Source: Candidatus Doudnabacteria bacterium
GTDB lineage: Bacteria; Patescibacteriota; Doudnabacteria; UBA920
Direction: 5' to 3'
Assembly: GCA_963837465.1 (NCBI GenBank)
Contig: CAWINB010000004.1
Span: 724,393 to 788,392, forward strand
Length of the DNA: 64,000 bases
The notes under the pieces are model-generated. The model had not been told where the DNA came from. It saw only the letters and a list, made by a program, of their open reading frames with translations, and did not search any database. This document shows, in pieces, positions 1 to 58,460 of this stretch; positions within the stretch are counted from its first letter, which is position 1; each line of letters starts with the position of its first letter. Position numbers and translations under genes: made by a program.

Positions 1-752
1 CCGGAAATTTTGTACAATTCGTTTTTTGTGATATGCGGACTCCAGACTTTTTGCCAGCCCTTTTTGGCCCGCAGGCTTTGCGAATATTCATTCAGCAGTT
101 CACGGATTAAAGCGCCTTTGGGGGTAAACAAGGGCAGCCCTTTGCCTACCAAGTCGGAAATGGTGAACAAATCCAGTTGTTGCCCAAGTTTTCTGTGGTC
201 GCGTTTTTCCGCTTCGGCAATCATCGCGAGATATTTATCCAGTTCCTCCTTGGTGCCAAAAGCCACGCCGTAAACGCGCGTCAGCATTTTATTTTTTTCG
301 TTGCCGCGCCAGTAGGCGCCGGCGACTTTTGTGAGCTTAAAAGCGTCGGGTTTAATTTCTTTTTTTGGCGACAGCGAGTGGCCGCCTTTGCACAAGTCCA
401 CAAAACCGCCGGAAGTATAAAAAGTCAGGTTTTTGCCGGCGCCGGCTAATTCATCAATCAGTTCAGTCTTGTATTCGTTCCAGGCGAATTGTTTTTTTGC
501 TTCCTCAAGGGAAACTTCCGTGCCTTCAAAAGTCTCCCAGGTGGGTAAAAGTTGCCGCATCTTTTTTTCAATCTTGGGTAAATCTTTGTCCGTAATCGGC
601 GCGGGTAAATCAAAATCCTGGTAAAAGCCGTCGTCTATGGCCGGTCCGATGGCATTTTTGGAGCCGGGATACAGCTGAATTACGGCCGCGGCCAGCAAAT
701 GAGCCAGGGAGTGGCGGATGGGTTCAAGGTTTTTTTGGTTATTGTCGTCCAT
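1..752 (-). CDS. thrS: threonyl-tRNA synthetase, N-terminal part; the gene runs off the window start
   Basis: The minus strand 752->1 translates MDDNNQKNLEPIRHSLAHLLAAAV..., the ThrRS editing-domain signature. ATG is at 750-752 and there is no stop before the window edge. Confidence 0.8.
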   Translation of the reverse strand, partial: MDDNNQKNLEPIRHSLAHLLAAAVIQLYPGSKNAIGPAIDDGFYQDFDLPAPITDKDLPKIEKKMRQLLPTWETFEGTEVSLEEAKKQFAWNEYKTELIDELAGAGKNLTFYTSGGFVDLCKGGHSLSPKKEIKPDAFKLTKVAGAYWRGNEKNKMLTRVYGVAFGTKEELDKYLAMIAEAEKRDHRKLGQQLDLFTISDLVGKGLPLFTPKGALIRELLNEYSQSLRAKKGWQKVWSPHITKNELYKIS

Positions 753-2224: not shown

Positions 2225-2258
2225 TTTCCGCCGGAGGCGGATCCGCCTCCGGCGGAAA
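2225..2258. repeat. 34-bp perfect GC-rich palindrome, family A (tttccgccggaggcggatccgcctccggcggaaa)
   Basis: Perfect palindrome 27 bp 3' of dnaE. A second, slightly imperfect copy lies inside ahcY at 52346-52381. Confidence 0.8.
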
Positions 2259-2284: not shown

Positions 2285-5200
2285 CTAATCCACCCCGACC
2301 ATGCCAATCTCATCCACCGATCTCAGCTCCGCCATCAAATCATTATTCATTCCCACCAGGGACTGGGTTTTTATTTTTTTGGCAGAATTCCCGCTGCCTA
2401 TGGACAGGTAAACTTGGGCGTTACCGGGGTATTTTTGTAAAATCCCCTTTATCCTGTTTAAAATTTCCATATTGGCCAGGCTGGACATATGCAGAACCAC
2501 GCTCTTGTTTTTTTCCATTTCCGACAGCGCCATATTGTATAAATCGTCGCCGGGCAGTTCCTTGATTTCGTCCGCGATGAGCTTTAGCTGCTCATCTTTG
2601 TCGCTGAGCCTGCCGGTAATCCGCAGGATTTTGTCATCGCTTAAGAACGGCAAAGCTTTTTCCATAACCTTGGGAAAAACCAAAACTTCCAGGCTGCCGC
2701 CGCCGTCGCCCAGGGTAAAAAAAGCCATAGGGTCGTTTTTACGCGTTAAAGTGCGCTTAAGCCGCGACACAATGCCGCCCAAAGTCAGGTTTAAACCCAC
2801 TTCTTCCAGGGACAAGCTTTTTATGGAGCGCAGCGTGGACAGGACTTTTTTGTGATTATCAAGAGGATGCGCCGAAACGTACATGCCCAAATGCTCTTTT
2901 TCCCAGACCAGTTTTTCTTCTTTGGTGGCGGGCGCCGAGTCCTTTAATTTTAATTTTCCCATTTGCAGGGATTTGCCGAACAGGGAATTTTGCCCGCTGT
3001 TTTGGTTTTTAAAATTTTCGCGGATAAAGTCCAAAATTTCCTCGGTATTATTAAGCAGCCGGCCGCGTTCGCCGTAAGCATCCAGCGCCCCGGCTTTGAC
3101 CAGGGCCTCCCAGGATTTTTTATTGAGATTTTTGGTGTAGGCGCGGGTCAGGAAATCTTCTAGGGACGAGAAAGGCGGCAGGGTAGGATAGAGGGGGCCA
3201 ACCGGGTTACTGTTCCCCAACAGCTCACCCCTAATCCCTATAATCTTGGCTATGACATCCGACCCCAGATTTTTAATCGCGTTAAGCCCAAACCTAATCG
3301 TGCTGTGATCCACCACCGTAAAATCCCCAAGCGATTCGTTAACATCCGGCGGCAGTACGCTGATACCCAAAGCTTTGCACTCCTCCACGGCTTCGTAAAT
3401 TTTTTCCTCGTCGCCGCTTTCCGCGGTCATTAAAGCCGCCATAAATTCCACCGGGTAGTTGGCTTTCATATAGGCCGTCTGGTAACTGACGGTGCTGTAA
3501 GAAGCCGCGTGCGCTTTGCCAAAACCGTAGGCGGCAAAAGGTTCTATTAAGGCGAAAAGTTCCGCCGCCTTTTCGGCGCGCATGCCGCCTTTAACGCAGC
3601 CATCTATGAATTTAATTTTTTGCTTGGTCATTTCCACCGGAATTTTTTTGCCCATGGCTTTGCGGAATTTATCCGCCTCTTCCCAGCTGTAGCCGGCGAT
3701 TTTAATGACAGTCAGCAAGACATCGTCCTGATAAACCAGCAGGCCCAGGCTCCGCTCCAGGTATTCTTTCATCCGGGGGTCAAAATAAGCGATTTTAGAC
3801 GGGTTATGCACGCGCTCTATATATTCGGGAATAATCCCCATGGGGCCCGGACGGTAAAGCGCTATCATGGCCATAATGTCAAAAATATTTTTCGGCTTGA
3901 GTTCTTTCAGATAGCGGGTAATGCCGGAAGACCCCAGCTGGAAAACGCCAAAAGTCAGGCCTTCGGAAAGCATTTTAAAAGTTTTCGCGTCGGGATGCGG
4001 AAGGTTGTAAATATCAATTGTTAAATTATGCCTTTTTTCCACCATTCTGACGGCGGATTCCAGGATGCTGAGGTTGCGAATGCCCAGCAAATCCAGTTTT
4101 ACGACGCCCAGAGCCCCGCTGCCGCCGGAATTCACATCCAGCGCGTACATGTCGTATTGGGTGATAATCCGCTCGCCGTCCGGCTCTTTTTGCAGAGGCA
4201 TGTAGTCGGTTAAGGCGGTGGGGGTTATGACGATTCCGGCGGCGTGCATGGAGGCGTGGCGCGCGCAACCCTCCAGTTTTTTGGCAATGTCCAAAACGCG
4301 TTTGGTTTCCGGGTCACGGTCGTAAATTTCCTTAAGTTCAGGGGTGTTTTGCAAAGCTTTTTCCAGCGTCATTAAAAAGCCCTGCTTTCCCAGAGGAATC
4401 ATTTTGGCAATTTGGTCGCACTTGGAATAAGGGATGGCCAGAGCGCGGCCGACATCCCTGACCGAGGCGCGCGCGGCCATGGTCCCAAAAGTTATAATTT
4501 GCGCGACTTTATCCGGGCCGTATTTTTTTGTGATGTAAACAATTGATTCGTCCCGGCGGTTATCGGCAATATCCAAATCTATATCGGGCGGAGCGGGGCG
4601 GTACATGGTTAAAAAACGCTCAAAGGGCAATTCGTAATATAAAGGGTCGACATTTGTAATGCCCAAAATCCGGCCCACGATGCTGCCGGCGGCGCTTCCT
4701 CTGGTGTTGGTAATAGCGCCGATATTATGGGCGCCCCGCACCACGTCCGCGACCATTAAAAAGTAACTGTCAAAACCTTTTTTGCAGATAATGTTGAGTT
4801 CGTAATCTATGCGGGTTTTAATTTCTTCCGGAATAGCAAGGTGTTCATCAACCCGGCTGTCATCGCGAGGAGCCCCGGAGGAATCCATCGGCGACGAAGC
4901 AATCTTTTCTTCGATGCTTGGATCAGATTGCTTCGGCCGCGCCCGCGATGACACATCTATAGGCTTGCCGTACAGCGGCAATGCTTTTTCATAAGTGACC
5001 TTCCTTAAATAATCCGCCGATGTTGTTCCTTGGGGGATTTCTACTTTTGGAAAGTATCTTTGGTCTGTCAAAATTTCCAAACTGCATAAATCCGCCACTT
5101 TTTGGGTATTTTGCACCGCCTCGGGAATATCGTAAAAAAGTTCCAGCATTCTTTCGCCGGATTTTAAAGACAGGTCATAACCGCGCATGTCCAAACGGTC

Positions 5201-5906
5201 GGCATCGTTTACCGTTCTGCCGGTACCGATGCAGACCATTACGTCCTGCGCTTCGGCATCTTCCGGGTATATATAGTGGCAGTCGGCCGTGGCCACCAGG
5301 TCAAGGTTGTTTTTTTTGGCCAGCGCCATTAATTTTTGGTTGAGCAGTTCTTCTTTAGGGTCGCCGGTTTTGCTGTTGCGCTGGATTTCTATAAACAATT
5401 TTTCCCTGCCGAAAATGTCCAGATATTTTTCCAAAACTTTTTGCGCCTCTTCCTCGGGTTTGCTCATAACCGACCGGGCAATCTCGCCGCGTTGGCAGCC
5501 GGAAAGGCAAATTAAGCCCTCGGCGTGGTTTTTCAGCAAGGCCAAATCTATCCGCGGCTTGTAATAAAATCCCCGCAAATGCGCTTCGGTGGTCAGCTTG
5601 ATTAAATTTTTATAGCCGGCGTCGTTTTGGGCCAGCAGGATTAGATGATGGTAATCGGCGTCAATTCTCCCTTCTTTTTCTTCCATGCCGCGCGGAGCAA
5701 TGTAAGCCTCAACTCCCACAATGGGTTTAACTCCGACTTCCCGGCAGTGATTATAAAATTCAATCGTCCCGTACATGACACCGTGATCCGTTACCGCAAT
5801 GCTGTCCATATCCAGTTCCTTGGCGCGTTCAACAAGCGGCTCGATTTTGCTTAAACCGTCCAGTAATGAATAATGGCTGTGGCAGTGGAGATGGGTGAAT
5901 TTCATT
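2285..5906 (-). CDS. dnaE: DNA polymerase III alpha subunit
   Basis: PHP-domain start MKFTHLHCHSHYSLLDG. The protein is collinear with DnaE along its full length. The ORF could extend to 6010, but the conserved start is at 5906. A roughly 45-aa low-complexity insert precedes the fingers region. Confidence 0.9.
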
Positions 5907-6071
5907 TTAATAGAAGCTGAGGGTGCGGCGCTGAACGCAAAGGCTGTATGTTGGCTCTGTGGTTGCGGCGTTTGTGTCAGCCCCGTTTTCGCAGCTTCCG
6001 CAAACAGCATACCAAAAATCCCCCGACTTTGCTATAATAAAATTGTAAAAAACAAACAAAATCGCGCTATT

Positions 6072-10325: not shown

Positions 10326-11171
10326 CTATATATTTTTTATTTCCGCGTAGCGCCACAGATTATTAAAATCATGATAAAATTCAGCACTTGCTTTTGGCAG
10401 GTATTTTTTTTGCCATTTTGTAATCAAAGCTTTGGCTTTTGGATCTATTTCCAAATAAATTTTACCTTTGGGGTTTAAATGGCCAGAAACTTCCCGCAAA
10501 AATCTTTCATAAATATCAAAATCCTTTGTCTCGTCAATCAAAGCGATTTTCGGCTCCCATACTAGATACTTAATACTGGATACATAATACTCTTTTGGCA
10601 CATACGGCAGGTTGGCAATAATTACGTCAAACCTGCCGCCAATGTTTTTAAAAAGGTCCGATTGGATAAATTTTATTTTCACATTGTGGATTTTGGCATT
10701 TTGCTTGGCGACTTTTAAAGCCCCGGACGAAATGTCGGACGCGTAAAATTCAAAACAAGGGCGCCCCTTGCGCCGCGCAAGGGGTGCCCTTGTTAGCAGT
10801 TTCGCGAGGGAAACAGCAACGCACCCGCTGCCGGTGCCTACGTCCAGAATTTTTAGAGGCACTCCGACTTTATGAACTTTAGAAACTTTAAGAACTTTAC
10901 CAACCAATTCTTCCGTCTCCGGCCGCGGAACCAGCGCATCTTTATTAACCTTAAGCCTCAGCCCCATAAAATCCTTATATCCCAAAATATAAGCCACCGG
11001 CTCGCCATTTTCCCCGCGTTTTATCATCCGTGTTAATCTGTCTGTTTGCGTCCGTGTTAGTCTGCGTTCCCCGTTCATATACAAAAACTCTTTTGGCCTT
11101 TTAAGTACATAAGCCAAAAGGAGTTCCGTTTCAGTGTTGTTAACTTTTTTCAAAGCTTCCCGTATCGTCAT
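10326..11171 (-). CDS. prmC: release-factor glutamine N5-methyltransferase PrmC/HemK
   Basis: LDVGTGSGCVAVSLA...NLPYVPKEYY (NPPY-type motif). The gene is adjacent to prfA. A 13-aa insert is encoded by palindrome B. Confidence 0.85.
   Translation of the reverse strand: MTIREALKKVNNTETELLLAYVLKRPKEFLYMNGERRLTRTQTDRLTRMIKRGENGEPVAYILGYKDFMGLRLKVNKDALVPRPETEELVGKVLKVSKVHKVGVPLKILDVGTGSGCVAVSLAKLLTRAPLARRKGRPCFEFYASDISSGALKVAKQNAKIHNVKIKFIQSDLFKNIGGRFDVIIANLPYVPKEYYVSSIKYLVWEPKIALIDETKDFDIYERFLREVSGHLNPKGKIYLEIDPKAKALITKWQKKYLPKASAEFYHDFNNLWRYAEIKNI
10754..10793. repeat. 40-bp GC-rich palindrome, family B (aacaagggcgccccttgcgc | cgcgcaaggggtgcccttgtt), inserted in-frame in prmC
   Basis: One mismatch between arms. 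It sits in an AT-rich coding context and encodes TRAPLARRKGRPC, which is absent from canonical PrmC between the GxGxG loop and the next strand. Confidence 0.75.
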
Positions 11172-15769: not shown

Positions 15770-15845
15770 GCCGTTGTAGCTCAGTTGGTAGAGCAACTCC
15801 ATGGTAAGGAGTAGGTCATCGGTTCAATTCCGATCAACGGCTCCA
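15770..15845 (+). tRNA. tRNA-Thr (anticodon GGT)
   Basis: Cloverleaf as read: GCCGTTG/CAACGGC acceptor stem, anticodon loop ATGGTAA, T-loop TTCAATT, and an encoded CCA. Confidence 0.85.
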
Positions 15846-28071: not shown

Positions 28072-28713
28072 ATGTTGATATTTATTGACGAATCCGGGGA
28101 TCCTGGGTTAAAACTTGGTGAAGGTTCAAGTAAATATTTTACTGTGGCTTTAGTAGTGTTTGAGGAAAATGATGAAGCGCTTGCTTGCGACCAAAAGATT
28201 GAATTGTTCAAGCGAGAATTGGGATGGAAGCCAAAAAGCGAATTTCATTTTAAAAATAACTCAGACAGAGTCCGCAAAGGCTTTTTGCAGGCAGTCGCGC
28301 CGTACAATTTTTTTTATTATGGAATTGTTTTAAACAAAGACCCTAAAAAGTTATGGGGCGAAGGATTTAAGGACAAGCAATCCTTTTACAAATACGCTTG
28401 CGGCCTGGTTTTTGAAAATGCAAAACCCAAACTTACAGAAGCAACAGTTATTATTGATGCCAGCGGCAGTTTGGATTTTAAAAATCAGCTGACTAAATAC
28501 CTGCGCCGCAAATTTAATGAGCAAGGAAATTCAGGTTCTAAAATAATCAAAAATGTAAAGATGCAACGCTCGGAAAGTAATAATTTATTGCAGCTGGCGG
28601 ATTATATTGCAGGCGTAATTAACCGCTCAATCAATAACACTAAAAAATACTCCGGCGATTACAGAAAGCTTATAGCTCACAGGGAGATAAGGGTACAAAT
28701 TTGGCCAAATTAA
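28072..28713 (+). CDS. DUF3800-family protein embedded between hsdM and hsdS
   Basis: N-terminal IFIDESGD and C-terminal LLQLADYIAG signatures. It starts 8 bp after the hsdM stop. Confidence 0.6.
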   Translation: MLIFIDESGDPGLKLGEGSSKYFTVALVVFEENDEALACDQKIELFKRELGWKPKSEFHFKNNSDRVRKGFLQAVAPYNFFYYGIVLNKDPKKLWGEGFKDKQSFYKYACGLVFENAKPKLTEATVIIDASGSLDFKNQLTKYLRRKFNEQGNSGSKIIKNVKMQRSESNNLLQLADYIAGVINRSINNTKKYSGDYRKLIAHREIRVQIWPN

Positions 28714-28886
28714 AACTTCCGACCCTATCCCTTGCGGGAACGCGGCGATAAACGCCACAGTTCAGATCGGAAGCGATTCCATTGTTATTATATCTGACTA
28801 TTAACCTTTGTCAAGAACTGTTAAGACTTGTTAAGCAATTATTCCCTTAATAACAAAAAAAGCCTATAATTAAGGCACTATAATTA

Positions 28887-48937: not shown

Positions 48938-49024
48938 GGGCAGGTACTCAAGCGGTCAACGAGGACTGACTGTAAATCAGTTGGCTTTACGCCTTCATAG
49001 GTTCGAATCCTATCCTGCCCACCA
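48938..49024 (+). tRNA. tRNA-Tyr (anticodon GTA), class II with a long variable arm
   Basis: GGGCAGG/CCTGCCC acceptor stem, anticodon loop CTGTAAA, T-loop TTCGAAT, and an encoded CCA. Confidence 0.8.
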
Positions 49025-50475
49025 TTGAAAAATTTCCAGCTTTTTTGGCGATTCCGCTATTAGCTGATAAGGTTGTTTGAGCTGAAAACATTGTGTGTTA
49101 CCATCTTGGAGCTTAAGGTTCCAAAGTAACTTTTTCAGCAATTCAAACTTTTTAGCGTTATCGCCGGAAAGATAATCAAAACTAGCAGAATTGGCCTGTA
49201 AGAAGGCCTTTTTTGTTTGTTCCAAAGTTGCCAACTGTTGTTCGGGAGTAATCTTGCCTAAATCGGAAATCTGCTTTGTGATAGTTTCCACATCCTGCTT
49301 CAGAGATAAAATTTTAGGCTTGAGCGTTTCTTTCATATCGGGGTCAGAGGAAATCATCTCAATTAGGTTTGCGAGTTTGCCTTGAGCCGTTTTAAGCTGT
49401 TTGGCCAGTTCTGATTTTTTGTCATCAGTTGAACCGCCCTGTTTTAGGATTTTATGCTTGGCCGCTTCGTAAGCCATTTCCATTTCATTGATGTCAAACT
49501 GAACATTGCTAAAAACTTTAGCCACTAACTCATCGTTGCCTTATCCCTTAAATATTTTCTGTGCTGTTCACAATTTCCTTTGCCATTGGTGCAGTACCAA
49601 TAAATGTGGCCTTTTTTAGTTGTTGCTGTTAAAGCACAACCACAAGAAAAGCAATTCATAAAACCTCTTAATGGAAAAAAGTGTTTTTGGGCTTTGGGGT
49701 GATGTTTGCCGTTTAAGACATCTTGGACATTATCAAACAGGGTTTTGCTGATTAATGGCGGATGATTGCCGGGGTAAAGCTGGCCGTTACTCCGCATTGT
49801 GCCATAGTAAAATGGCTGGGTTAAGATTTTATGCAATAAGGCTTTGCTGACTTTAAAGCCCTCTCTAGTGTTTAAGCCCTGCTTTTCTAAAATTTCATTA
49901 ACCTGCTTAAGAGAATAGCCGCCGGTAGCGTAAAGTTCAAAGGCTTGTTTAACTAATGAACCTCTAATGGGGTCAATTTCTTTTAGCTTGGTAATTTTGT
50001 TATCAATGTAACCCAAGGGGGAGCGGTTCGGCCATTCACCCCTTTCTAATTTGGTGCGGTTGCCACGCTTCACATTTTTGGACAGGTCGATGCTGTATTG
50101 TGCGGCCATACTAAACTCCACGCCGGAAACCAAAACATTGTCTTCGGGATAGTAAGTTTTTTCGGGAGTGATTATTTTACCGATTATTCCAGTTTGCAAT
50201 AGCCATTTAATTTTACCCTCGTCAATGGGGTTTCTGGCGAGCCGGTCAAGTTTCCAAACCAAAACCACAGAGCCAGGGTTACGCTCAATTAAACTTACAA
50301 GCTTTGCAAATTCAGGACGGCCGGGTTTTCTTGCCGACATACTTTCGGTAAAACTTTTATCAACAGCAATATTTTGTTTTTCCGCAAAAGCCGCCAACTC
50401 CTTTTCTTGGCTCTCAATGGAAAGCACCTGATGATAGGAATCTTCGGACGAATGAACAATGGGGACATGACCCAT
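49010..50475 (-). pseudogene. second large serine recombinase, split by a frameshift at about 49525
   Basis: 49525..50475 encodes the catalytic + recombinase + zinc-ribbon region. It lacks the conserved N-terminal Y/R residues, and its start codon lies inside an IS hairpin. 49010..49525 encodes the coiled-coil C-terminal region in another frame. The 3' end overlaps tRNA-Tyr, the same layout as at tRNA-Thr. Confidence 0.7.
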
Positions 50476-51203
50476 TGTTTTGGCTTAATTATTGTTTAAA
50501 AGGCCTTCCCGGCTGTCTAAGGGTATAGCCTAAATCATATCTGTCGACTTGTTTGCCAACCCAAGCCTCACTGCCAAAAGGCCTGCTTTTTTCAACCGAA
50601 GTCCTAATGTTATCAAGCTGTGTTTTTGCTAATGGGTGATTAACCAAGCTTAAATAATTCTTTGGTATTTCTATGGGCCAAGGCATTAAAATCTTCTTAG
50701 CCAATTCGGAATTCTTTAATCTTAAACACAAACTGCTCCAAGGCCAATCCTCGGCGTTTTTTACCATTTTGGCTCGAAGGGCATTGGCTTCTACATATTT
50801 TGCCAGTTGTATAAAATATTCATCTTTTTCAACCAAAAAAGACTTGAATCGGCCCTGAAATAAATGCCCCGTCCCCACCGTACCGTGTTTTGTGTGCCAT
50901 CGCTGGGTTGTTTTTTGGGTAAACTTACCAAAAAATCCACCCATATCCCCATTAGCTTTAGGCCTGACTACAAAATGCCAATGATTAGACATTATGCAAA
51001 AAGCAAAGATGTCTATGGGAATTAACTCCAATGTTTCCACTAAGGATTTTACCACGCCTTGGAAATCTTTGTCGGATTTAAATATATCCCAACGGGCGTT
51101 GGATCTATTTATGACATGAAAAATCTGATCGGCTATGTCCAGCCGCGGTTGTCTAGCCATTGCTAAAGTATAACATAAAAAAATTAATGGGTCATGTCCC
51201 CAT
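50458..51203 (-). mobile_element. IS200/IS605-family (RAYT-like) element bounded by 19-nt hairpin ends aatggggacatgacccatt / aatgggtcatgtccccatt
   Basis: The two ends are exact reverse complements, and each is an imperfect hairpin. These are subterminal-hairpin ends, not TIRs. Confidence 0.65.
50489..51160 (-). CDS. tnpA: IS200-like / REP-associated tyrosine transposase (HUH Y1)
   Basis: IMSNHWHFVV (HuH) and GHLFQGRFKS...YVEANALRA (catalytic Tyr region). 223 aa. Confidence 0.75.
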   Translation of the reverse strand: MARQPRLDIADQIFHVINRSNARWDIFKSDKDFQGVVKSLVETLELIPIDIFAFCIMSNHWHFVVRPKANGDMGGFFGKFTQKTTQRWHTKHGTVGTGHLFQGRFKSFLVEKDEYFIQLAKYVEANALRAKMVKNAEDWPWSSLCLRLKNSELAKKILMPWPIEIPKNYLSLVNHPLAKTQLDNIRTSVEKSRPFGSEAWVGKQVDRYDLGYTLRQPGRPFKQ

Positions 51204-51207
51204 TCAT

Positions 51208-52494
51208 TTAAGTCCCTTCCTGCCAGCTGGCCAAATATTTTTGCTGGGCTGGTGTTAGTACGTCTATTTTAACTCCAAGTGCCGCTAATTTTAGCCGGGA
51301 AACTTTTTCGTCTATTTCTTTTGGTACGTTGTAGACTTTATTTTCCAGGGTTTTGTAATTTTTGGCCAGCCACCGGCAGGTTAGGGCTTGGTCGGCAAAG
51401 GACATATCCATAACCGCCGCCGGGTGGCCTTCGGCCGCGGCCAGGTTCATCAGCCGTCCTTCGGCAATCAAAAATATTTTTCGCCCATTCTTCATACTAA
51501 ATTCCTGCAAGTTGTCCCTGACGAGCTGACAGCTGACAGCTGACAGCTTTAAGCTTGCTATATCAATCTCCACATTAAAATGCCCGCTGTTGCCTAAAAT
51601 CGCGCCATCTTTCATTAGTTTAAAATGCGCGGCGGTTAAAACGTCTTTGTCTCCCGTGGCCGTTAAAAAAATGTCTCCGATTTTTGCCGCTTGCGCCATT
51701 GGCATAACTTCAAAGCCGTCCATGGCCGCCTGTAAAGCCGGCAGGGGATCAACTTCAGTCACTATCACCCTGGCCCCTAAACCCTTACCCCTTAGCGCCA
51801 TTCCCTTGCCGCAATAACCGTAACCGGCGACCACTAAAATTTTTCCGGCTAACAGGATATTGGTGGCGCGCAATAAACCGTCCATGGTGGATTGCCCGGT
51901 ACCGTAATAGTTGTCGAACATATGCTTGGTCGGCGTATCGTTAACCGCCACTATCGGGTACTTAAGCGCGCCGTCTTTGGCCATAGCCCTGAGCCTGATT
52001 ACTCCGGTCGTGGTTTCTTCCTGTCCCGCCCGGACAGTTTTAAGAAGTTCGGAGCGATCCGAATGGATAAGTGAAATTAAATCCGCGCCATCGTCAATGG
52101 TAATGTCGGGCTTAAAATCCAGGACATCGTTTAAAGCTTTGTAATAGTCTTTATGATTGATTCCGCGCCAGGCAAAAACGTGGATTTTATGTTCTGCCAG
52201 CGCGGCGGCCACGTCATCCTGGGTAGAAAGGGGATTACTGCCGCACAGCGCGACATTCGCGCCTCCGGCCACCAGCGCCTTCATTAACACCGCGGTTTCT
52301 TTGGTCACGTGCAGGCAACAGGCAATATTTAAATTTTTTCCGCCGGAGGCGGATCCGCCTTTGGCGGAAAACGGTTGTTGCTGTTTAAAATCGGCTGTTA
52401 TGGACCGCAGTACTGGCATTTCCCGCTCGGCTAAGTCTATGTTGGCGCGCCCCTTGGCGGCCAGCTTTTGATTCTTGACCTGAAAACTTTTCAT
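51208..52494 (-). CDS. ahcY: adenosylhomocysteinase
   Basis: Collinear with SAH hydrolase, including the NAD-binding GYGxxGKG region. It contains a roughly 10-aa Gly/Ser insert encoded by palindrome A' and a (gctgaca)3 tract. Confidence 0.9.
   Translation of the reverse strand: MKSFQVKNQKLAAKGRANIDLAEREMPVLRSITADFKQQQPFSAKGGSASGGKNLNIACCLHVTKETAVLMKALVAGGANVALCGSNPLSTQDDVAAALAEHKIHVFAWRGINHKDYYKALNDVLDFKPDITIDDGADLISLIHSDRSELLKTVRAGQEETTTGVIRLRAMAKDGALKYPIVAVNDTPTKHMFDNYYGTGQSTMDGLLRATNILLAGKILVVAGYGYCGKGMALRGKGLGARVIVTEVDPLPALQAAMDGFEVMPMAQAAKIGDIFLTATGDKDVLTAAHFKLMKDGAILGNSGHFNVEIDIASLKLSAVSCQLVRDNLQEFSMKNGRKIFLIAEGRLMNLAAAEGHPAAVMDMSFADQALTCRWLAKNYKTLENKVYNVPKEIDEKVSRLKLAALGVKIDVLTPAQQKYLASWQEGT
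51524..51547. repeat. heptanucleotide tandem repeat (gctgaca)x3 inside ahcY
   Basis: Seen directly. It encodes SAVSCQL and is in-frame because 21 bp is a multiple of 3. Confidence 0.6.
52346..52381. repeat. family A GC-rich palindrome, second copy, in-frame inside ahcY
   Basis: ttttccgccggaggcggatccgcctttggcggaaaa compared with 2225-2258. It encodes the SAKGGSASGG-type insert absent from canonical AhcY. Confidence 0.75.
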
Positions 52495-58386: not shown

Positions 58387-58460
58387 TTGACTCAAAATTT
58401 GGCATAATAAAGCGCGGCCGCGCTTTATTATGCCAAGCATTTAACAAAAAAATAAAAGCC

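Follow-up and report, generated by a model that had tools for sequence, protein, structure and literature searches.

Short GC-rich palindromes inserted in frame in housekeeping genes of a Candidatus Doudnabacteria contig: likely hairpin-forming selfish elements

Here, we describe two GC-rich palindromes, palA and palB, in a 64-kb window (the whole stretch of DNA read here) from an 868-kb contig of Candidatus Doudnabacteria (Patescibacteria; Doudnabacteria-like). One copy of palA lies within ahcY, a second copy is intergenic, and palB lies within prmC. We consider it likely that both palindromes are ultra-short, hairpin-forming insertion elements, a kind of non-autonomous selfish DNA that is tolerated inside essential genes. 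Selfish palindromes within protein-coding genes have so far been regarded as peculiar to Rickettsia and a few other lineages. In the present case, a 30-nt element recurs with the same sequence, in frame, in genes for DNA polymerase, gyrase, tRNA synthetases and other core functions across many phyla.

Results

The AhcY orthologues nearest to that of the window (416 aa, 81-82% identity) do not have SAKGGSASGG, the peptide that palA encodes in ahcY. This bears out the view of an earlier note on this DNA that the insert is foreign to canonical AhcY. With minor variants, the peptide is found at three distinct AhcY positions across lineages: the window alone has it after QPF, five orthologues have it between DF and KKRRPF, and four have it in the hairpin turn EYTM^KDGRK (^ marks the point of insertion here and below). 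At three pairs of filled and empty sites, the genes differ by exactly 30 nt, and no target-site duplication is present: CCT TTT^AAG (empty) versus CCG TTT[30]AAA (filled), GAT TTT^AAA versus GAT TTC[30]AAA, and AGT ATG^AAG versus ACG ATG[30]AAG. The only duplication seen in this search flanks a palA variant in the PrmC of locus L124, where CAATTTTCAAT stands on both sides of the insert; we treat this direct repeat as a local duplication. We conclude that palA is inserted precisely where a T-rich step meets an A-rich one (TTT^AAA, ATG^AAA), without target duplication. The comparison of orthologues, which the earlier note proposed as a check, gives similar answers for the two genes: the nearest AhcY proteins are without the insert and other lineages hold palA at the three positions, while palB is missing from the nearest PrmC relatives and scattered elsewhere. 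Hence the peptides are not common to all relatives, the outcome that the note would have taken as the mark of an ancient feature.

The palindromes of the window are largely as that note had described them. On the + strand, the prmC palindrome reads AACAAGGGCGCCCCTTGCGC-C-GCGCAAGGGGTGCCCTTGTT (20+1+20 nt, one mismatch, GC 0.68), and comparison with orthologues sets the insert itself at 39 nt, or 13 codons, as claimed. With 30 nt for palA, both insert lengths are multiples of three, and the statement that they keep the reading frame is correct. The perfect 34-bp intergenic palindrome, TTTCCGCCGGAGGCGGATCCGCCTCCGGCGGAAA, is present at 2225-2258, 27 nt past the dnaE stop codon. palA does recur inside ahcY, but at coordinates that had to be shifted about 9 nt leftward: together with its TT/AA flanks, the ahcY copy is a 34-nt near-palindrome with two adjacent mismatches at 52337-52370, not 52346-52381. 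About 4e-6 perfect 17+17 palindromes are expected by chance in 64 kb, 100 shuffles returned no match to the palA 34-mer, and the three palindromes have fold z-scores of -7.2, -4.9 and -5.9. A scan of the window for GC-rich islands was uninformative, the background already being 45% GC.

palA consists of two tandem 15-nt units, T-CCGCC-NNN-GGCGG-A, which makes either arm of the palindrome a smaller palindrome in its own right. Among 105 oriented copies, only a preceding TTY and a following RAA are conserved in the flanks. Variation falls mostly in the two NNN loop triplets (AAA 41, GGA 22, ATA 17) while the stems are fixed, which explains the two "mismatches" of the ahcY copy. Where stems do vary, the change is compensated inside one unit (CCAGCC..GGCTGG, CCCGCC..GGCGGG, TCCCGC..GCGGGA, TCAGCT..GGCTGA), and compensation across the two units was not found. 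Since stem compensation occurs within and never across units, the module is the 15-nt mini-hairpin. The fetched DNA, about 1 Mb in which roughly one unit is expected by chance, contains 99 double arrays, one triple array and 56 stretches that were scored as single units, though many of these "singles" are doubles with one mutated unit.

Further copies were sought with an exact 20-mer of palA in species-representative genomes, a collection in which about one chance match is expected. Among the matches listed there are more than 117 loci, in metagenome-assembled genomes (MAGs) of more than ten phyla. The carriers listed include many groups of the Candidate Phyla Radiation (CPR), Omnitrophota, Kiritimatiellia, Verrucomicrobiota, Lentisphaerae, Planctomycetota, Elusimicrobia and Firestonebacteria, as well as Ignavibacteria, Bacteroidota, Chloroflexota, Acidobacteriota and proteobacterial MAGs; the listed matches outside MAGs are two partial ones in GC-rich actinomycete isolates. 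All are bacterial genomes. They come from many independent studies, long-read assemblies included, and the loci range from 35% to 70% GC. Several of the listed MAGs have at least 3-6 palA loci each. As for possible vectors, palA had no exact match in the viral contigs of IMG/VR, and BLASTN returned no match in INPHARED phages or PLSDB plasmids.

Counting as genic any copy in a stop-free open reading frame (ORF) of at least 450 nt, taken from stop codon to stop codon, 88 of 128 palA copies are genic and about one third are intergenic. The frame that reads S-A-x-G-G-S-A-x-G-G (frame 0) is used by 77 of the 88 genic copies, a strong departure from equal use of the three frames (binomial P = 7e-26). 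palA contains no stop codon in any of its frames, the others reading as basic (RRRIRLRR) or proline-rich (PPEADPP) peptides. The 79 host ORFs fall into 72 unrelated clusters, and insert positions are spread evenly along them. A Pfam scan of 20 hosts returned, among others, DnaE, GyrA, GyrB, two class I tRNA synthetases (IleRS/ValRS-type), ThrRS, a class II synthetase, GatB, glutamine synthetase (GlnA), RecG, HypF and an enzyme of the EPSP-synthase family (MurA/AroA-type). On coding strands, palA is read as SAKGGSASGG 21 times, as its reverse complement SAGGGSAFGG 12 times, and as the symmetric SAGGGSASGG 11 times. Both orientations therefore occur, and it is the DNA that is conserved, not the peptide.

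Some palA copies have unusual surroundings. In locus L122, a perfect copy at 994-1023 lies 25 nt upstream of the start codon for ribosomal protein L33, and the public gene call spans it, giving a 116-aa "L33" where the gene call of a relative has 51 aa. The Kiritimatiellae MAG STD1_155 carries palA within a composite repeat of about 230 nt, of which there are at least four copies (L002 4587 and 6408; L021 7325; L050 7925). Another Kiritimatiellia MAG (L088) has five palA copies in 8 kb, with palA centred in further inverted repeats (AGCCGGT...ACCGGCT). These composite repeats suggest that palA has inserted into the loops of other hairpin repeats, or has been mobilised together with them.

palB differs from palA in scale and spread. 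Four other loci (L123, with its copy at about 477-515, L122, L138 and L139) have related palindromes of 37-45 nt at the same position of PrmC, whereas the nearest PrmC relatives of the window have none. In a simple distance tree of PrmC, carriers of palB stand in separate clades, adjoining non-carriers. Across the five copies, the 18-bp stem is 97.8% paired even though 8 of the 18 pairs have changed on both sides; none of 500 shuffles reaches these values. Between the window and L123, the palB insert is 87% identical and the remainder of prmC 62%. A scan of metagenome contigs at JGI, which required both arms to be nearly intact and so missed diverged copies, added two copies, both intergenic. 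In the approximately 1 Mb of fetched loci there was no further full palB, only single half-sites (window 127-147 and L051) that are probably due to chance. One of the two JGI copies, that in L125, stands downstream of a large gene with an A-run on one side and a T-run on the other, in the manner of a bidirectional terminator. Judged from these sequences, palB is a single long hairpin whose symmetry is maintained by compensatory changes, and it is the rarer of the two elements.

The PrmC loop in question, which directly follows the GxGxG motif for S-adenosylmethionine (AdoMet), is a hot spot for inserts: it holds the five palB-like palindromes, the palA variant of L124, and others. Different lineages carry other short GC-rich inserts in this loop, e.g. 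LRAKGLGLR and SPLPVGEGARRAGEG, and some PrmC homologues have inserts of 40-70 aa after the N-terminal domain.

Structure modelling, also proposed in the earlier note, places both peptides in predicted coil. In AlphaFold models built on orthologue alignments, the PrmC insert (residues 127-139; model predicted local distance difference test score, pLDDT, 86) runs through coil from helix 117-127 to strand 140-146, with pLDDT below 50 at residues 130-134, and the AhcY insert (residues 43-52; model pLDDT 82) falls within coil 40-55, which links helix 27-39 to strand 56-61. As modelled, both positions are compatible with the fold, in coil between secondary-structure elements and with lowered pLDDT.

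The window also encodes a transposase. The earlier note had pointed to a transposase of the IS200 or RAYT type (RAYTs are the tyrosine transposases associated with repetitive extragenic palindromic sequences, REPs) at 50489..51160, and Pfam does assign this ORF, on the - strand, to Y1_Tnp (IS200-like; E 1.8e-11). The further link that it had drawn between this gene and the palindromes did not stand up. The gene has inverted repeats of its own, a perfect 19-nt pair (AATGGGGACATGACCCATT; 50458-50476 and 51186-51204) that encloses it and is unrelated to palA and palB. Homologues occur in Doudnabacteria, in Paceibacterota (CPR), on a Planctomycetota-like contig and in an Omnitrophota MAG, and comparable GGGGAC...GTCCCC repeats, again unlike palA and palB, stand at either end of those in L127, L128, L130 and L053. 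No CCGCC-NNN-GGCGG unit was found at the homologue loci except L053. Conversely, just one of 117 palA loci, the same L053, has a Y1_Tnp homologue within 8 kb (1.6 kb away), and relatives that carry palA in ahcY have no Y1_Tnp gene beside it.

Together with its repeats, the gene forms a compact 747-bp unit (50458-51204) between ahcY and a serine-recombinase ORF (49525..50475), whose predicted start falls within the 19-nt repeat. In relatives, the DNA downstream of ahcY lacks this unit. Many homologues come from contigs about 1 kb long, a size that fits a unit which is repeated or which interrupts assemblies.

Table 1. Positions of palA, palB and their host genes in the window
Feature	Coordinates	Strand	Description
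palB	10755..10793	-	39-nt (13-codon) prmC insert encoding TRAPLARRKGRPC; with one more base on each side, the 41-nt palindrome 10754-10794
prmC (release-factor glutamine methyltransferase), palB host	10326..11171	-	281-aa ORF; Pfam PrmC_N and MTS
palA in ahcY	52339..52368	-	30 nt, TCCGCC-AAA-GGCGGA + TCCGCC-TCC-GGCGGA, encoding SAKGGSASGG
ahcY (adenosylhomocysteinase), palA host	51208..52494	-	428-aa ORF
Vacant TTT^AAA site in ahcY	52384..52389	-	Phe-Lys codons of "DFK"; five other AhcY orthologues hold the 30-nt palA here
palA, intergenic	2227..2256	.	Loops GGA and TCC, giving a perfect palindrome; 34 nt with flanks (2225-2258)

Discussion

How might such elements move and persist? The inserts are probably translated, giving extra peptides such as ...PFSAKGGSASGGK..., because the frame would otherwise not matter; palA would add a flexible Ser-Ala-x-Gly-Gly twice, and purifying selection would remove copies that land in either of the two other frames. 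Movement may depend on a trans-acting enzyme that recognises hairpins in single-stranded DNA. By analogy with IS200/IS605 and REP-RAYT systems, our best guess for the mover is an HUH-type nuclease or transposase acting by "peel and paste"; we favour this mechanism because with it, too, insertion takes place beside a short target and no duplication arises, but the guess is tentative and could easily be wrong. It is also possible, if still doubtful, that no mobile DNA element smaller than palA has yet been described. On this reading, palA is a 15-nt hairpin module, as a rule in pairs, that has spread horizontally through more than ten phyla, inserts at T^A without duplication, is moved by a class of enzyme new to such elements or without any enzyme, and persists as a harmless translated Gly/Ser/Ala loop.

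Several observations weigh against reading palA and palB as selfish insertion elements. A mobilising enzyme was not found, either in the window or by searching the 8 kb around 117 palA loci for homologues of Y1_Tnp. The 64-kb window holds only two copies of palA and one of palB. The insertion events may be old rather than the product of ongoing mobility. Vertical descent can hardly account for the identity of palA across phyla, and yet viral contigs, phages and plasmids offered no matching vector. Translation of the inserts is itself deduced from sequence. The evidence for dispersal of palB is thin and much weaker than that for palA: of the seven copies known, five share one PrmC loop and the other two are intergenic, and palB may be an old lineage-specific loop that has been lost repeatedly.

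One alternative dispenses with a transposase. Template switching or gene conversion during replication or repair could spread the elements, with TTT/AAA microhomology as guide and hairpins that stall the polymerase, after horizontal transfer has seeded the genomes. Such a process would suit the exact insertions without target duplications, the T-runs and A-runs that border these sites and most other copies, the lack of a cognate enzyme among our findings, and the single, double and one triple arrays of the 15-nt unit. Three bases of microhomology are, however, very little for repeated precise events, the process alone does not account for 30-mer identity across phyla, and no donor-recipient pairs have been traced; we regard it as unlikely. 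Another candidate is the Y1 transposase of the window, which might mobilise palA and palB as RAYTs are thought to do for REPs. It lies 1.2 kb from palA in ahcY, a second palA locus has a homologue nearby, and homologues are found in Doudnabacteria, Paceibacterota and Planctomycetota. But given that gene and homologues have inverted repeats of their own, none like palA or palB, that the 15-nt unit is missing from homologue loci other than L053, that the relatives with palA in ahcY have no neighbouring Y1_Tnp, and that no homologue lies within 8 kb of 116 of the 117 palA loci, which is about the level of chance, this role is quite improbable. As far as sequence comparison goes, the transposase is probably not the mobilising enzyme.

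The remaining alternatives deny that palA and palB are selfish, or even that they are real, and we give them still less credence. They might be functional nucleic-acid hairpins, i.e. terminators, attenuators, mRNA stabilisers or protein-binding sites. The terminator-like flanks of the palB-like copy in L125, a consensus scan that marks 2225-2258 as terminator-like on the + strand, and the shape of the 15-nt unit, which resembles the binding site of a dimer, lend this idea a slight plausibility that other evidence largely removes. As an intrinsic terminator, palA is out: its Ts precede and its As follow the stem, the wrong polarity; the flag at 2225-2258 is on the + strand, where no gene ends, the adjoining genes being on the - strand; and the genic copies lie inside ORFs. 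Terminators within ahcY, prmC, gyrase and tRNA synthetase genes would be harmful, and the frame bias shows selection acting through the protein. Rfam returned nothing at the palA and palB sites at the gathering threshold, and under relaxed settings only generic miRNA-precursor hairpins far below it. Slimmer again is the chance that the palindromy is incidental and that each peptide is a long-standing functional part of its protein, as a flexible linker or a lineage-specific loop. palB-like peptides do occupy the same PrmC loop in five lineages, and both peptides sit in loops that tolerate extra residues. Against this, palA is identical in its codons, beyond its residues, in unrelated proteins and phyla, the reverse orientation with its different peptide (SAGGGSAFGG) is common, and a third of copies are intergenic; for palA, an old functional loop is refuted. 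The nearest orthologues have neither insert, and palB keeps its pairing through eight compensatory pairs as its peptide changes. Least credible of all is an artefact of sequencing or assembly, such as an adapter or chimera in the contigs. It is true that nearly all carriers are MAGs, that the centre of palA is a BamHI site and its peptide resembles a synthetic linker, and that matches to the palA sequence and peptide in the literature are cloning primers and synthetic linkers only. Yet the insertions are clean, with gene sequence continuous on both sides and a strong bias to one frame; diverged genes from independent projects share orthologous positions with synonymous differences; and copies appear in both short-read and long-read assemblies from many studies.

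If palA and palB are selfish insertion elements, how do they compare with known systems? The earlier note likened their behaviour to that of Rickettsia palindromic elements (RPEs). RPEs are about 150 bp long, form ten families and are confined to Rickettsia, and the first report counted 44 of them in unrelated metabolic genes of R. conorii (Ogata et al. 2000, as summarised in PMC10969869); they carry the end tag CGTC (PMC3733652). The likeness in behaviour holds: in both cases palindromes invade coding sequence in frame, in unrelated and often essential housekeeping genes, the extra peptides fit the fold, and no transposase of their own is known. Membership in the family does not, since palA and palB are set apart by description, with 30 and 39 nt, no CGTC tag, palA in more than ten phyla, and a Doudnabacteria host.

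REPs and REPINs are similar in being GC-rich palindromes with strong hairpins, in the class of 20-40 nt (palA 34 nt, palB 41 nt), and the window does contain a RAYT-like gene. REPs are marked by a GTAG tag, are mostly extragenic and lineage-specific, and flank a RAYT gene, although some lie inside genes (PMC3733652, PMC3116915). By contrast, no GTAG or CGTC tag is seen in the flanks of palB or of the 105 oriented palA copies, palA is mostly genic (88/128) and common to many phyla, and the RAYT-like gene of the window and four homologues are flanked by repeats of their own, of the GGGGAC...GTCCCC type. In this last respect, with its 19-nt repeats, the Y1_Tnp gene is reminiscent of "TIRtrons", in which a transposase is flanked by its own inverted repeats and not by REPs (PMC3733652). 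HUH Y1 transposases are suspected of mobilising REPs (PMC3733652, PMC3116915). REPs run to tens or hundreds of copies in a single genome; the counts here are two palA and one palB in the 64-kb window, and at least 3-6 palA loci in several of the listed MAGs.

By description, the structure of palA comes closest to that of the double-hairpin elements (DHEs) of chytrid and fission yeast mitochondria. Copies of these very short elements are identical across species and differ mainly in their loops (Paquin et al. 2000, cited in PMC10085805). They are mostly intergenic or in rRNA genes, and mobility is suspected, although no enzyme is known for it (PMC10085805). palA likewise comprises two adjacent GC-rich hairpins, with variation in the loops and compensation within units, but it is bacterial, mostly in protein-coding sequence, and held to one reading frame; palB, as one long hairpin, does not fit. 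Elements of the IS200/IS605 type have a hairpin at each end, move through single-stranded DNA intermediates, have cleavage sites and guides away from the hairpins, and rely on a cognate TnpA. palA resembles them in its insertion without target-site duplication at three site pairs and in its short T-rich 5' flank, and differs in that it consists of the two hairpins only, with no cognate TnpA found in the window or linked to palA across 117 loci. The same absence of target-site duplication at three sites separates palA from classical miniature inverted-repeat transposable elements. Finally, palindromic amphipathic repeat coding elements (PARCELs) are also coding DNA with dyad symmetry, patchy in distant microbes and thought to have moved horizontally, but they are 25-residue amphipathic domains in long tandem arrays in surface proteins or proteins of unknown function, whereas palA and palB are single inserts of 10-13 residues in housekeeping enzymes. 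A full-text search of the literature, incomplete in its coverage, found no description of these sequences or of in-frame palindromic inserts in CPR or Omnitrophota.

If our preferred reading, that palA and palB are selfish hairpin-forming insertions, is right, these elements would provide a widespread route by which loops are added to proteins, and they would account for many of the short low-complexity inserts and length differences met with in the annotation of CPR proteins. Their spread would further imply exchange of DNA among co-occurring uncultivated bacteria, and a mechanism of insertion based on hairpins, for which phyletic profiling could reveal the enzyme.

Additional features of the window

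A third palindromic insert in a housekeeping gene of the window is of a size more like that of RPEs. In dnaE (2285..6010, - strand), an in-frame insert of about 40 aa (window 4838-4963; …SSRARPKQSDPSIEEKIASSPMDSSGAPRDDSRVDEHLA…) has no counterpart in the DnaE of the relative L122, which is 72% identical. At the DNA level, the insert forms an imperfect palindrome, some 96 nt long (4858-4953), with the motifs GTCATCGCGAGGAGC and GAAGCAATCT, which are also found in repeats of other MAGs. The same gene has a second insert, of 13 aa, near residue 930.

The window also contains an Rfam DUF3800-IX RNA at 28711-28774 on the - strand (54.7 bits, above the gathering score) and tRNAs at 15770-15842 and 48938-49021. 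Lastly, a perfect 38-nt palindrome with a NotI-like centre, TTGGCATAATAAAGCGCGGCCGCGCTTTATTATGCCAA, lies at 58399-58436, outside every stop-free ORF of at least 300 nt, and is unrelated to palA and palB.

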